From: Escherichia coli
GTDB taxonomy: Bacteria; Pseudomonadota; Gammaproteobacteria; Enterobacterales; Enterobacteriaceae
Direction: 5' to 3' (one strand)
Assembly (NCBI RefSeq): GCF_003334765.1
Contig: NZ_QOWT01000009.1
Length of the DNA stretch: 64,000 bases
The position numbers and the translations under genes were made by a program. Positions 37,220-44,489 of the stretch are shown here, in pieces. Position 1 is the first letter of the stretch. The number at the start of each line of letters is the position of its first letter. A model generated the notes under the pieces. It was not told the DNA's origin and ran no database searches. It saw only the letters and a program-made list of their open reading frames with translations.

Positions 37220-38008
37220 ATGCAAACGATTATCCGTGTCGAGAAGCTCGCCAAAACCTTCAATCAGCATCAGGCGCTGCATGCGGTTGATCTGAACATT
37301 CATCACGGTGAAATGGTGGCTCTGCTTGGGCCGTCGGGTTCCGGAAAATCCACCCTTTTACGTCACTTAAGCGGTTTGATTACCGGCGATAAATCTGTCG
37401 GTAGCCATATCGAGCTGCTGGGCCGCACAGTCCAGCGCGAAGGCCGCCTGGCCCGCGATATCCGCAAAAGCCGCGCCCATACCGGCTACATATTCCAACA
37501 ATTCAACCTGGTGAACCGCCTGAGCGTACTGGAGAACGTGCTGATTGGCGCGCTCGGCAGCACGCCGTTCTGGCGCACCTGTTTTAGCTGGTTCACCGGC
37601 GAGCAGAAACAGCGCGCGTTACAGGCGCTGACCCGCGTTGGCATGGTGCATTTTGCCCATCAGCGCGTTTCCACCCTCTCCGGCGGCCAGCAGCAACGTG
37701 TGGCGATTGCCCGTGCGCTGATGCAGCAGGCGAAAGTGATTCTGGCCGATGAACCCATCGCCTCGCTGGACCCAGAATCAGCGCGCATCGTGATGGACAC
37801 CCTGCGCGACATCAACCAGAACGACGGCATCACCGTGGTCGTCACGCTGCATCAGGTGGATTACGCCCTGCGCTACTGCGAACGCATCGTCGCCCTGCGC
37901 CAGGGGCACGTCTTCTACGACGGCAGCAGCCAACAGTTTGATAACGAACGTTTTGACCATCTCTACCGCAGCATTAACCGCGTCGAAGAGAACGCGAAAG
38001 CTGCCTGA
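37220..38008 (+). CDS. phnC: Phosphonate ABC transporter ATP-binding protein PhnC (262 aa)
   Basis: Walker [13 protein letters not shown] signature LSGGQQQR, Walker B ILADEP. Confidence 0.96.
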
Positions 38009-38032
38009 CATCCCCATCATTGAGGAAAACGA

Positions 38033-39049
38033 ATGAACGCTAAGATAATTGCCTCGCTGGCCTTCACCAGCATGTTCAGCCTCAGCACCCTGTTAAGCCC
38101 GGCGCACGCCGAAGAGCAGGAAAAGGCGTTGAATTTCGGCATTATTTCAACGGAATCACAGCAAAACCTGAAACCGCAATGGACGCCGTTCTTGCAGGAT
38201 ATGGAGAAGAAGCTGGGCGTGAAGGTCAACGCCTTCTTTGCCCCGGACTACGCGGGCATTATCCAGGGGATGCGCTTCAATAAAGTGGATATCGCCTGGT
38301 ACGGCAATCTGTCGGCGATGGAAGCGGTGGATCGCGCCAATGGCCAGGTCTTCGCCCAGACGGTCGCGGCGGATGGATCGCCGGGTTACTGGAGCGTGTT
38401 GATCGTCAACAAAGACAGTCCGATCAACAACCTGAACGATCTGCTGGCGAAGCGGAAAGATCTCACCTTTGGCAATGGCGATCCTAACTCCACCTCTGGC
38501 TTCCTCGTCCCCGGCTACTACGTCTTCGCCAAAAACAATATCTCCGCCAGCGACTTCAAGCGCACCGTCAACGCCGGGCATGAAACCAACGCGCTGGCCG
38601 TCGCCAACAAGCAGGTGGATGTTGCCACCAACAACACCGAAAACCTCGACAAGCTGAAAACCTCCGCGCCAGAGAAGCTGAAAGAACTGAAGGTGATCTG
38701 GAAGTCGCCGCTGATCCCAGGCGATCCGATCGTCTGGCGCAAGAATCTTTCCGAAACCACCAAAGACAAGATCTACGACTTCTTTATGAACTACGGCAAA
38801 ACGCCGGAAGAAAAAGCGGTGCTGGAACGCCTGGGCTGGGCGCCATTCCGCGCTTCCAGCGACCTGCAACTGGTGCCGATTCGCCAGCTCGCGCTGTTTA
38901 AAGAGATGCAGGGCGTGAAAAGCAATAAAGGACTGAATGAGCAGGACAAGCTGGCAAAAACCACCGAGATTCAGGCGCAGCTGGATGACCTGGACCGCCT
39001 GAACAACGCGCTAAGCGCGATGAGTTCGGTGAGTAAAGCGGTGCAGTAA
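38033..39049 (+). CDS. phnD: Phosphonate ABC transporter periplasmic binding protein PhnD (338 aa)
   Basis: N-terminal signal peptide ending AHA-EE; recognised. Confidence 0.96.
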   Translation: MNAKIIASLAFTSMFSLSTLLSPAHAEEQEKALNFGIISTESQQNLKPQWTPFLQDMEKKLGVKVNAFFAPDYAGIIQGMRFNKVDIAWYGNLSAMEAVDRANGQVFAQTVAADGSPGYWSVLIVNKDSPINNLNDLLAKRKDLTFGNGDPNSTSGFLVPGYYVFAKNNISASDFKRTVNAGHETNALAVANKQVDVATNNTENLDKLKTSAPEKLKELKVIWKSPLIPGDPIVWRKNLSETTKDKIYDFFMNYGKTPEEKAVLERLGWAPFRASSDLQLVPIRQLALFKEMQGVKSNKGLNEQDKLAKTTEIQAQLDDLDRLNNALSAMSSVSKAVQ

Positions 39050-39052
39050 ATC

Positions 39053-39141
39053 GTAGGTCGGATAAGACGCCCCGGCGTCGCATCCGACAATGTGCAGGCG
39101 TTGATGCCGGATGCGGTGCAAGCACCTTATCCGGCCTACAG
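39053..39141. repeat. REP pair (BIME) between phnD and phnE
   Basis: taggtcggataagacgc...gcgtcgcatccgaca and gatgccggatgcggtgcaagcaccttatccggcctac. Confidence 0.85.
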
Positions 39142-39154
39142 ACCGGAGCCAAAC

Positions 39155-39942
39155 ATGCAAACCATCACCATCGCCCCACCCAAGCGCAGCTGGTTCTCGC
39201 TTCTGAGCTGGGCCGTTGTACTCGCCGTGTTGGTCGTCTCGTGGCAGGGCGCGGAAATGGCCCCGCTTACGCTGATCAAAGACGGCGGCAACATGGCGAC
39301 GTTCGCCGCCGACTTCTTCCCGCCCGATTTCAGCCAGTGGCAGGATTACCTCACCGAAATGGCCGTCACGCTGCAAATCGCCGTCTGGGGCACCGCGCTG
39401 GCGGTGGTTCTCTCCATCCCCTTTGGCCTGATGAGCGCCGAAAACCTGGTGCCGTGGTGGGTTTACCAGCCCGTTCGCCGCCTGATGGACGCCTGCCGCG
39501 CCATTAACGAAATGGTCTTCGCCATGCTGTTCGTGGTCGCCGTCGGCCTCGGCCCGTTCGCTGGCGTGCTGGCGTGCTGGCGCTGTTTATCCACACCACC
39601 GGCGTGCTCTCCAAGCTGCTTTCCGAAGCGGTGGAAGCGATTGAACCCGGCCCGGTGGAAGGCATTCGCGCCACCGGTGCCAACAAGCTCGAAGAGATCC
39701 TCTACGGCGTGCTGCCACAGGTGATGCCACTGCTGATCTCCTACTCCCTCTATCGCTTCGAATCCAACGTCCGCTCGGCGACCGTCGTCGGCATGGTCGG
39801 CGCAGGCGGGATCGGCGTCACCCTGTGGGAAGCGATTCGCGGTTTCCAGTTCCAACAAACCTGCGCCCTGATGGTGCTTATCATCGTCACGGTCAGCCTG
39901 CTGGATTTCCTCTCTCAACGGTTGCGTAAGCACTTTATCTGA
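39155..39942 (+). pseudogene. phnE: phnE, phosphonate ABC transporter permease, disrupted by a frameshift (8-bp tandem duplication at 39560-39575)
   Basis: Frame A (39155-39724) encodes the N-terminal 139 aa then runs into nonsense; frame B continues ...[13 protein letters not shown]... to 39942; mentally removing one gctggcgt copy restores a single ORF. Confidence 0.88.
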
Positions 39943-39962
39943 TAAGCGAGGCATTGATATCT

Positions 39963-40688
39963 ATGCACTTGTCTACACATCCGACCAGCTACCCAACACG
40001 CTATCAAGAGATAGCCGCAAAACTTGAGCAGGAGCTTCGTCAACACTACCGCTGCGGCGACTATCTTCCCGCCGAGCAGCAACTGGCAGCGCGCTTTGAG
40101 GTGAATCGCCACACCCTGCGCCGCGCCATCGACCAACTGGTGGAAAAAGGCTGGGTACAGCGCCGTCAGGGCGTCGGCGTGCTGGTGCTGATGCGCCCGT
40201 TCGATTACCCGCTCAACGCCCAGGCGCGTTTTAGCCAGAATCTGCTGGATCAGGGCAGCCATCCCACCAGCGAAAAACTGCTTTCGGTATTGCGCCCCGC
40301 GTCCGGCCACGTCGCTGACGCACTGGGGATTACCGAGGGGGAGAACGTCATCCACCTGCGCACCCTGCGTCGTGTCAACGGCGTCGCGCTCTGTTTAATC
40401 GACCACTACTTCGCGGACCTCACCCTCTGGCCGACGCTGCAACGCTTCGACAGCGGCTCGCTGCACGATTTTCTGCGCGAGCAAACCGGAATTGCGCTGC
40501 GCCGCAGCCAGACGCGGATCAGCGCCCGCCGCGCCCAGGCCAAAGAGTGCCAGCGTCTTGAAATCCCGAATATGTCGCCGCTGCTGTGCGTGCGCACCCT
40601 TAACCACCGTGACGGTGAAAGCAGCCCGGCGGAGTACTCCGTCAGCCTGACGCGCGCCGACATGATTGAATTCACTATGGAGCACTGA
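39963..40688 (+). CDS. phnF: GntR-family regulator PhnF (241 aa)
   Basis: Start at MHLSTHPTSY; N-terminal GntR HTH. Confidence 0.93.
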   Translation: MHLSTHPTSYPTRYQEIAAKLEQELRQHYRCGDYLPAEQQLAARFEVNRHTLRRAIDQLVEKGWVQRRQGVGVLVLMRPFDYPLNAQARFSQNLLDQGSHPTSEKLLSVLRPASGHVADALGITEGENVIHLRTLRRVNGVALCLIDHYFADLTLWPTLQRFDSGSLHDFLREQTGIALRRSQTRISARRAQAKECQRLEIPNMSPLLCVRTLNHRDGESSPAEYSVSLTRADMIEFTMEH

Positions 40689-41141
40689 ATGCACGCAGAT
40701 ACCGCGACCCGCCAGCACTGGATGTCCGTGCTGGCGCACAGCCAACCGGCTGAACTGGCAGCACGCCTGAACGCGCTAAACATCACCGCCGACTATGAGG
40801 TGATCCGCGCCGCTGAAACTGGCCTGGTACAGATTCAGGCGCGGATGGGCGGCACCGGCGAACGTTTTTTTGCCGGCGACGCCACGCTGACCCGCGCCGC
40901 CGTGCGCCTGACTGACGGCACGCTCGGCTACAGCTGGGTGCAGGGGCGTGATAAACAGCACGCCGAACGCTGCGCGCTGATTGACGCGCTGATGCAGCAA
41001 TCTCGCCACTTTCAAAACTTATCAGAAACCCTTATTGCCCCGCTGGACGCTGACCGTATGACACGCATTGCCGCACGCCAGGCCGAAGTGAACGCCAGCC
41101 GGGTCGACTTCTTTACGATGGTTCGCGGAGACAACGCATGA
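40689..41141 (+). CDS. phnG: C-P lyase core complex subunit PhnG (150 aa)
   Basis: Full ORF; recognised; operon position. Confidence 0.95.
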
Positions 41142-41722
41142 CCCTGGAAACCGCTTTTATGCTTCCCGTGCAGGATGCCCAGCACAGTTTTCGTCGCCTG
41201 TTAAAGGCCATGAGCGAGCCGGGCGTGATTGTCGCCCTGCATCAGCTCAAACGCGGCTGGCAACCGCTGAATATCGCCACCACCAGCGTGCTGCTGACGC
41301 TGGCCGATAACGACACGCCGGTGTGGCTTTCTACCCCATTAAATAACGATATCGTCAACCAGAGCCTGCGTTTTCATACCAACGCGCCGCTGGTCAGCCA
41401 GCCGGAACAGGCGACCTTCGCGGTGACGGATGAGGCGATTTCCAGCGAACAGCTCAACGCCCTTTCCACCGGCACCGCCGTTGCGCCGGAAGCGGGTGCG
41501 ACGCTGATTTTACAGGTCGCCAGCCTGAGCGGCGGACGCATGTTGCGCCTTACTGGTGCGGGTATTGCCGAAGAACGAATGATCGCTCCGCAGCTGCCGG
41601 AGTGCATTCTGCACGAACTCACCGAGCGCCCGCATCCGTTCCCGCTCGGCATCGACCTGATCCTGACCTGTGGCGAGCGCCTGCTGGCTATTCCGCGAAC
41701 CACTCATGTGGAGGTGTGCTGA
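41138..41722 (+). CDS. phnH: C-P lyase core complex subunit PhnH (194 aa)
   Basis: ATGA overlap with phnG; recognised. Confidence 0.95.
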
Positions 41723-42786
41723 TGTACGTTGCCGTGAAAGGGGGCGAGAAGGCGATCGACGCCGCCCACGCCCTGCAAGAGAGCCGACGCCGAGGCGATA
41801 CCGATTTGCCCGAACTGAGCGTCGCCCAGATTGAACAGCAGCTTAACCTCGCGGTAGATCGCGTGATGACCGAAGGCGGCATTGCCGACCGCGAACTGGC
41901 GGCGCTGGCGCTGAAACAGGCCAGCGGCGATAACGTTGAAGCGATTTTCCTGCTGCGCGCCTACCGCACCACGTTGGCGAAGCTGGCGGTAAGCGAGCCG
42001 CTCGACACCACCGGGATGCGTCTCGAACGCCGTATCTCCGCCGTTTATAAAGACATTCCCGGCGGCCAGCTGCTTGGCCCAACCTACGACTACACCCATC
42101 GCCTGCTCGATTTTACCCTGCTGGCAAACGGCGAAGCGCCGACGCTGACCACCGCCGACAGCGAACAGCAGCCGTCGCCGCACGTTTTCAGCCTGCTGGC
42201 GCGTCAGGGGCTGGCGAAGTTTGAAGAGGATAGCGGCGCACAGCCGGATGACATCACCCGCACGCCGCCGGTTTACCCCTGCTCACGCTCCTCCCGTTTG
42301 CAGCAGTTGATGCGCGGCGACGAAGGCTATTTGCTGGCGCTGGCCTACTCCACCCAACGCGGTTACGGGCGCAATCACCCGTTCGCAGGCGAGATCCGCA
42401 GCGGCTATATCGACGTGTCGATTGTGCCGGAAGAGCTGGGATTTGCGGTGAACGTCGGCGAACTGCTGATGACTGAGTGTGAAATGGTTAACGGTTTTAT
42501 CGACCCGCCGGGTGAGCCGCCGCACTTCACGCGCGGCTACGGGCTGGTGTTCGGCATGAGCGAGCGCAAAGCGATGGCGATGGCGCTGGTCGACCGCGCT
42601 CTGCAAGCCCCGGAGTACGGCGAGCACGCGACAGGCCCGGCGCAGGATGAAGAGTTCGTGCTGGCACATGCCGACAACGTCGAAGCCGCAGGCTTTGTCT
42701 CACACCTCAAACTCCCCCACTACGTCGATTTCCAGGCCGAACTGGAGCTACTCAAACGTCTGCAACAGGAGCAGAACCATGGCTAA
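41722..42786 (+). CDS. phnI: C-P lyase subunit PhnI (354 aa)
   Basis: Start at [13 protein letters not shown] overlapping phnH stop (TGATG); track ORF has spurious 40-codon upstream extension. Confidence 0.94.
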   Translation: MYVAVKGGEKAIDAAHALQESRRRGDTDLPELSVAQIEQQLNLAVDRVMTEGGIADRELAALALKQASGDNVEAIFLLRAYRTTLAKLAVSEPLDTTGMRLERRISAVYKDIPGGQLLGPTYDYTHRLLDFTLLANGEAPTLTTADSEQQPSPHVFSLLARQGLAKFEEDSGAQPDDITRTPPVYPCSRSSRLQQLMRGDEGYLLALAYSTQRGYGRNHPFAGEIRSGYIDVSIVPEELGFAVNVGELLMTECEMVNGFIDPPGEPPHFTRGYGLVFGMSERKAMAMALVDRALQAPEYGEHATGPAQDEEFVLAHADNVEAAGFVSHLKLPHYVDFQAELELLKRLQQEQNHG

Positions 42787-43624
42787 TCTGAGCGGCTACA
42801 ACTTTGCCTACCTCGACGAGCAGACCAAACGCATGATCCGCCGCGCCATCTTAAAAGCGGTGGCGATCCCCGGTTATCAGGTGCCGTTTGGCGGGCGCGA
42901 GATGCCGATGCCGTACGGCTGGGGAACCGGCGGCATTCAGCTTACCGCCAGCGTGATTGGCGAAAGCGACGTGCTGAAGGTGATTGACCAGGGCGCGGAT
43001 GACACCACCAACGCCGTGTCGATTCGCAACTTCTTCAAGCGCGTGACCGGGGTAAACACCACGGAACGTACGGACGATGCGACGGTTATCCAGACGCGTC
43101 ACCGCATCCCCGAAACGCCGCTGACCGAAGATCAGATAATTATCTTCCAGGTGCCAATCCCCGAGCCGCTGCGCTTTATCGAGCCGCGCGAAACGGAAAC
43201 CCGCACCATGCACGCGCTGGAAGAGTACGGCGTGATGCAGGTGAAACTGTATGAAGATATCGCCCGCTTCGGTCATATCGCCACCACCTACGCCTATCCG
43301 GTGAAGGTAAATGGGCGCTACGTGATGGACCCGTCGCCGATCCCGAAATTCGATAACCCAAAAATGGACATGATGCCCGCCCTGCAACTGTTCGGCGCGG
43401 GGCGCGAGAAGCGCATCTATGCGGTGCCGCCGTTTACCCGCGTGGAAAGTCTCGATTTCGACGATCACCCGTTCACCGTTCAGCAGTGGGATGAGCCATG
43501 CGCCATCTGCGGATCGACCCACAGCTATCTTGATGAAGTGGTGCTGGATGACGCCGGAAACCGCATGTTTGTCTGCTCCGATACCGATTATTGCCGCCAA
43601 CAGAGCGAGGCAAAAAACCAATGA
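42779..43624 (+). CDS. phnJ: C-P lyase catalytic subunit PhnJ (radical SAM-like, 281 aa)
   Basis: Start at MANLSGYNFAYLDEQ; C-terminal Cys cluster (CAICGS...C...C); track ORF extended upstream. Confidence 0.94.
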   Translation: MANLSGYNFAYLDEQTKRMIRRAILKAVAIPGYQVPFGGREMPMPYGWGTGGIQLTASVIGESDVLKVIDQGADDTTNAVSIRNFFKRVTGVNTTERTDDATVIQTRHRIPETPLTEDQIIIFQVPIPEPLRFIEPRETETRTMHALEEYGVMQVKLYEDIARFGHIATTYAYPVKVNGRYVMDPSPIPKFDNPKMDMMPALQLFGAGREKRIYAVPPFTRVESLDFDDHPFTVQQWDEPCAICGSTHSYLDEVVLDDAGNRMFVCSDTDYCRQQSEAKNQ

Positions 43625-44379
43625 ATCAACCGTTACTTTCGGTCAATAACCTGACCCACCTTTACGCGCCGGGCAAAGGCTTTAGCGATGTCTCTTTTGA
43701 TTTATGGCCGGGGGAAGTGCTGGGCATTGTCGGGGAATCCGGCTCCGGGAAGACCACGCTGCTGAAGTCGATCTCCGCGCGCCTGACGCCGCAGCAGGGG
43801 GAAATTCACTACGAGAACCGTTCGCTGTATGCAATGAGCGAGGCCGACCGCCGTCGCCTGCTGCGTACCGAATGGGGCGTGGTGCATCAGCATCCACTCG
43901 ACGGCCTGCGCCGCCAGGTGTCGGCGGGCGGCAATATCGGCGAGCGGCTGATGGCGACCGGGGCACGTCATTACGGCGATATTCGTGCCACCGCGCAGAA
44001 GTGGCTGGAAGAGGTGGAGATTCCCGCCAACCGGATCGACGACCTGCCGACCACCTTTTCCGGCGGTATGCAGCAGCGTTTGCAGATTGCCCGCAACCTG
44101 GTGACGCATCCGAAGCTGGTGTTTATGGATGAACCGACCGGCGGGCTGGATGTGTCGGTGCAGGCCCGCCTGCTCGACCTGCTGCGCGGCCTGGTGGTGG
44201 AGCTGAACCTCGCGGTGGTGATTGTCACCCATGATTTAGGCGTCGCCCGCCTGCTGGCGGACCGTTTGCTGGTGATGAAGCAGGGGCAAGTGGTGGAGAG
44301 TGGGTTAACCGACCGCGTGCTCGACGACCCGCATCATCCGTATACACAGCTGCTGGTGTCATCGGTTTTGCAGAATTGA
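43621..44379 (+). CDS. phnK: ABC-type ATPase PhnK (252 aa)
   Basis: Start at [11 protein letters not shown]; Walker [10 protein letters not shown]. Confidence 0.94.
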
Positions 44380-44382
44380 GCC

Positions 44383-44470
<88 letters not shown>

Positions 44471-44489
44471 CCGAACCACGAGGCGAAAA

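Follow-up and report, generated by a model that had tools for sequence, protein, structure and literature searches.

The phnE gene in the 64,000-nucleotide stretch of DNA analyzed here (the window) is almost certainly the classical cryptic allele phn(EcoK0) of Escherichia coli K-12, in which a third copy of an 8-bp unit, probably gained by slippage, has put the gene reversibly out of frame. As encoded in the window, phnE is a pseudogene of the PhnE family (phosphonate ABC transporter permease). The features on which this assignment is based are as follows, in window coordinates.

37220-38008, + strand: phnC (ATPase), intact
38033-39049, + strand: phnD (binding protein), intact, part of the same transporter as phnC
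39155-39942, + strand: phnE pseudogene, phosphonate ABC transporter permease, frameshifted; 788 nt; labeled "frameshifted" by PGAP in matching genomes; repaired product recognized by TIGR01097 and Pfam
39155-39724, + strand: frame-A product of phnE, 140 native residues and a 49-amino-acid aberrant tail; stop codon at 39722-39724
39560-39583, + strand: 8-bp repeat tract GCTGGCGT GCTGGCGT GCTGGCGC, three units (two units in functional alleles)
39574-39942, + strand: second-frame segment, native C-terminal 122 amino acids of PhnE, including an EAA-type loop
39963-48041, + strand: phnFGHIJKLMNOP, intact regulator and C-P lyase pathway genes

Frame break, repair in silico, and operon context

A first-pass annotation of the window had proposed that phnE reads in frame from 39155 and is broken at an 8-bp repeat. 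This was borne out: translation from an ATG at 39155 gave 140 native amino acids followed by a shift of frame. The annotation had placed two repeat units at 39560-39575; the tandem 8-mer was indeed found, but the count was too low by one, since working alleles already have two units and the window has three, at 39560-39583. Period-8 matching was perfect across 39560-39582, and the tract corresponds to nucleotides 406 to 421 of the ORF. Beyond it, frame A proceeds through 49 aberrant residues to the stop at 39724, agreeing with the nonsense sequence that had been described, and the second frame, which is open from 39508 and has a GTG at 39574, encodes native permease sequence up to 39942, also as described. 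The two frames overlap by approximately 216 nt (39508-39724). Apart from the phnE tract, the 64 kb of the window had no tandem tract of period 8. By first-order Markov simulation (n = 200), 0.91 two-copy period-8 tracts would be expected per window, and a tract as long as that of phnE (at least 15 periodic matches) occurred in none of the 200.

Removal of one 8-bp unit in silico produced a single 780-nt ORF encoding 259 amino acids. The fusion of both frames that had been predicted was thus obtained, with a product shorter than the approximately 276 amino acids expected. The frame was not regained in silico when two units were removed or one was added. Compared to the PhnE equivalog in NCBIfam (TIGR01097; profile length, 252; curated cutoff, 216.7 bits), the repaired 259-amino-acid protein scored 311.5 bits over profile positions 8 to 251 of 252 and was assigned to the family. 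The frame-A fragment alone scored 127.7 bits (profile positions 8 to 133) and the second-frame fragment alone scored 176.5 bits (profile positions 131 to 251); both are below the cutoff, and phnE as it stands is therefore a pseudogene of the family. The Pfam permease domain BPD_transp_1 (PF00528) was detected at residues 88 to 258 of the repaired protein (E = 5.6e-26), so that the break at residue 140 cuts the membrane domain. The break sits in a hydrophobic stretch (residues 113 to 153), upstream of an EAA-type cytoplasmic loop at residues 166 to 185 of the repaired protein. The loop was labeled by inspection, and a strict EAA-motif regular expression gave 0 matches on PhnE. The EAA loop of ABC importer permeases docks to the ATPase and couples to it, a role that residues 166 to 185 would presumably have in PhnE.

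An alignment to phnE of a strain with a functional gene, which had been proposed as a check, gave full agreement: the repaired protein was identical to PhnE (WP_001193500.1) of E. coli B (BL21(DE3)), the classical Phn+ reference, at 259 of 259 residues. Loss of one unit in silico thus returns a PhnE of the functional type, identical to that of E. coli B. At the nucleotide level, K-12 and E. coli B phnE differed at 16 of 780 positions, all of them synonymous. The K-12 pseudogene has gained no amino acid change although it is out of frame, a pattern that fits recent inactivation or intermittent selection.

The rest of the phn locus was complete. The phnCDEFGHIJKLMNOP operon occupies 37220-48041 on the + strand in the standard order, which places phnE among phnC, phnD, and phnF to phnP. 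The claim that the remaining 13 phn genes look intact was upheld, in that all were open and had the lengths given in the PGAP/RefSeq annotation of the matching genome. Curated NCBIfam cutoffs were passed by 11 of them (PhnC, D, F, G, H, K, L, M, N, O, and P); PhnI and PhnJ lack an NCBIfam equivalog, and their intactness was judged by ORF length only. Positions in the record of strain tolC- (L001) were offset from those of the window, probably by an indel, and ORF checks were used instead. A 25-kb stretch of the window (30000-54999) was 100% identical to E. coli K-12 EMG2 and MG1655, and the window is therefore from K-12 or a near-identical relative. In matching genomes, RefSeq/PGAP labels phnE as "frameshifted."

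Both of the larger intergenic gaps of the operon, phnD-phnE (39050-39154) and phnK-phnL (44380-44489), contained paired palindromic units (GCCGGATGCGGCG...CTTATCCGGCCTAC), and inverted repeats were confirmed in each. These units are presumably REP/BIME elements, which they resemble. Near the phn operon of BL21(DE3), dcuS is annotated as frameshifted (L014, 42112-43748); this is unrelated to the break in phnE.

Repeat number across complete E. coli genomes

The distribution of repeat number was surveyed in 5,426 complete E. coli genomes, of which 5,395 contained phnE. The three-unit tract with 26-nt flanks was present in 997 of the 5,426 genomes (999 matching records), and the three-unit OFF allele thus occurs in about a fifth of them. 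Flanks identical to those of K-12 were found in 991 of the 999 records and other flanks in the remaining 8. Approximately 4,400 genomes with other haplotypes kept two units. Two units were present in BL21(DE3), ETEC1732, O157:H7, O127:H6, and others, compared to three in the window. Sources were checked for 60 evenly spaced three-unit records. About 35 of these 60, more than half, were of human, animal, food, or environmental source and were not named K-12 derivatives; laboratory strains are therefore not the only carriers of the OFF allele.

Other repeat numbers were found on the K-12 haplotype. A four-unit allele (796 nt, out of frame, and flagged "frameshifted") had exact full-length matches in 12 genomes, and the four-unit alleles of strains VR50, EF7-18-51, SW071611, and TB4019 (L003 to L006, positions 222-1017) showed 0 SNPs relative to the window in the 780-nt core. 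The repaired, two-unit form of the K-12 haplotype was found in 5 genomes. It was exact in ETEC1732, ETEC1734, Z217-2, and Z217-4; the fifth, an MG1655 from Sao Paulo with one SNP, may be the published revertant. One-unit alleles were absent from all complete E. coli genomes searched, as were five-unit alleles from the same collection.

A three-unit tract was also found outside the K-12 haplotype. The frameshifted phnE of strain 35 (bovine, Kazakhstan; L002, positions 222-1009) has three units, and the sites at which it differs from K-12 are exactly the 16 synonymous ones that distinguish BL21(DE3). Judged by these sites, its third unit was gained independently, on the haplotype of E. coli B. 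Seven more three-unit records, besides that of strain 35, had non-K-12 flanks. The three-unit tract also matched three places on plasmid-classed records, including NZ_CP083870.1 (strain NDM6; 18,105 bp), which may be chromosomal fragments filed as plasmids. In O157:H7 strain 2149 (L011), the first unit at nucleotides 406 to 421 of phnE was the imperfect GCTGGTGT, which interrupts the periodic tract. O157:H7 lineages with this interruption may be less prone to slippage.

Repeat number is thus polymorphic in natural isolates, with 2, 3, and 4 units on the K-12 haplotype and an independent event in strain 35, as would be found at a contingency locus. On this comparative evidence, the phnE tract is a slippage hotspot with natural 2/3/4-unit variation. 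The distribution on the K-12 haplotype was strongly skewed, with approximately 991 three-unit records versus 12 four-unit and 5 two-unit genomes, and the OFF state was almost fixed. A fast switch accounts for this skew no better than does an inherited lesion that seldom reverts. Given the dominance of the OFF state on this haplotype, phnE in nature appears to behave more like an inherited pseudogene that occasionally reverts than like a fast switch.

Published record, mechanism, and alternative explanations

The phnE lesion and its interpretation are already known and fully published (Makino 1991; Iqbal 2004; Guillemet and Moreau 2012; Stasi 2019). In K-12, an insertion of 8 bp in phnE makes the PhnCDE transporter cryptic, and phnE+ revertants arise by slippage (PMC6469041). 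One such K-12 revertant was shown by genome and Sanger sequencing to lack 5'-GCTGGCGT at ORF positions 407 to 414 (PMC6469041); the tract at ORF positions 406 to 421 in the window is the site of that deletion. The 8-bp deletion was also reported in five strains evolved under phosphate starvation, where it was ascribed to high-frequency slippage between direct repeats (PMC4759930). These published deletions of GCTGGCGT in Phn+/PhnE+ revertants agree with the first-pass statement that a repeat-mediated frameshift is the classic basis of the cryptic Phn phenotype of K-12. The alleles phn(EcoK0), phn(EcoK+), and phn(EcoB) have been described (PMC3463581), K-12 is Phn- until the 8 bp are lost, and Phn+ revertants can be selected (PMC6469041, PMC3463581). 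The revertant papers trace the 8-bp allele to Makino et al. 1991 and Iqbal et al. 2004 (as cited in PMC6469041, PMC4759930, and PMC3463581). According to these later citations, Iqbal et al. 2004 reported that cultures can lose the unit and gain it back ("reversible phase variation in phnE"; cited in PMC6469041 and PMC3463581) and claimed high-frequency switching in both directions (cited in PMC6469041). A preprint that cites both papers too describes phase variation of the phn system, with either 2 or 3 copies of the repeat (bioRxiv 10.1101/2019.12.23.887760). In the TraDIS data of the same preprint, fosfomycin selected for insertions in the phn importer of a K-12 strain that was supposed to be cryptic, a hint that some importer activity may persist or that part of the population may be ON. 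A published survey of the distribution of the phnE frameshift in natural isolates was not found in an incomplete literature search, and Iqbal et al. 2004 may cover part of it.

Under the favored explanation, replication slippage would have added a third GCTGGCGT to the normal GCTGGCGT-GCTGGCGC tract, which encodes A-G-V-L-A. With 8 nt more, translation would leave the native frame once residue 140 of the 259 amino acids had been reached, and the 49-amino-acid aberrant tail and stop would leave no functional permease. Phosphonate uptake would then fail even with phnC, phnD, and the genes for C-P lyase intact, consistent with the phenotype in the literature. Slippage that removes one unit would make the strain Phn+ again, with a PhnE exactly like that of the wild type, and regain of a unit would turn phosphonate uptake off again, as the literature on reversion and reversibility suggests. 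No sequence evidence that contradicts the phn(EcoK0) explanation was found.

The alternative closest to this one is that phnE is a plain, recently inherited pseudogene and not an adaptive switch, produced by one slippage event in the ancestor of the phylogroup-A (K-12-like) lineage and reversible only because the lesion is a repeat. This is possible but doubtful. A single origin would be in keeping with the K-12-identical flanks in 991 of 999 three-unit records and with the absence of SNPs in the 780-nt core among the window and the four sequenced four-unit alleles. The repaired K-12 haplotype in only 5 genomes points the same way, as do the approximately 4,400 genomes that keep two units on other haplotypes and the mere 8 records with three units on other flanks. 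Against it stand the cultures that lost the unit and recovered it, attributed to Iqbal et al. 2004 (as cited in PMC6469041 and PMC3463581), the fact that no nonsynonymous change separates the K-12 allele from that of E. coli B, and the occurrence of 2, 3, and 4 units on a single haplotype together with an independent gain on the B haplotype. The two explanations differ only in whether reversibility is adaptive, and their molecular account is the same.

The other two alternatives concern whether the break is real and whether it matters. A sequencing or assembly artifact is extremely improbable. Short tandem repeats can in principle be miscounted, and no other support for an artifact was found; however, the identical three-unit tract was present in 997 independently assembled complete genomes, RefSeq annotates phnE as frameshifted, and revertants with the 8-bp deletion were confirmed by Sanger sequencing (PMC6469041). 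The artifact was rejected on the basis of the 997 concordant assemblies, and the first-pass concern that the duplication might be an assembly artifact is answered by the identical 76-nt tract and flanks in 991 independent complete-genome records. It is also very unlikely that a functional permease is still made, either by programmed -1 ribosomal frameshifting within the overlap (39508-39724) or as two cooperating half-proteins. The approximately 216-nt overlap and the second-frame GTG at 39574 would permit such a product, and the TraDIS preprint suggests some importer function in the presence of fosfomycin (10.1101/2019.12.23.887760), but an ON subpopulation could account for that signal, and K-12 becomes Phn+ only on loss of the 8 bp (PMC6469041, PMC3463581). 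A split protein is further disfavored by the position of the break inside the hydrophobic stretch (residues 113 to 153) and by the 49-amino-acid aberrant tail of the frame-A product. A search of frame A over the whole phnE gene for X XXY YYZ slippery heptamers gave 0 matches; programmed -1 frameshifting was rejected for this reason and because it conflicts with the published Phn- phenotype.

The identification of phnE as phn(EcoK0) therefore recovers a textbook lesion and has no discovery value. The lesion explains both the Phn- phenotype of K-12 strains and the PhnE+ revertants that sweep phosphate-starved cultures. The practical value lies in the correct annotation, namely, a phnE pseudogene formed by repeat expansion and repairable by an 8-bp deletion. 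The one addition is from the survey, in which the OFF allele was common outside the laboratory; with 997 of 5,426 genomes carrying it, claims that it is a peculiarity of K-12 should be softened. As a tentative extension, the "K-12 laboratory" cryptic allele could be a widespread natural polymorphism, with phnE a true natural contingency locus at which OFF is favored in one large commensal lineage, a proposal that is somewhat improbable as it stands.

Comparison with known systems

The phnE allele in the window does not differ from the cryptic phn(EcoK0) of K-12 (Makino et al. 1991; Iqbal et al. 2004): the gene, the unit (GCTGGCGT), its position, and its consequence are the same, and it is the same allele. 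The phnE of phn(EcoB) in E. coli B is set apart from it by a two-unit tract and 16 synonymous differences, and its protein equals the repaired PhnE of the window. Simple-sequence contingency loci, as in Haemophilus and Neisseria, undergo phase variation by slipped-strand mispairing. phnE is similar to these loci in having a tandem repeat within the gene, with a unit length not divisible by 3, that toggles the reading frame, and in having a copy number that is polymorphic in natural populations (2, 3, and 4). It differs from them in that its tract is very short (2 to 4 units of 8 bp, versus long runs of 1- to 5-bp units), its state is mostly fixed within a lineage, and its function is metabolic rather than that of a surface antigen.
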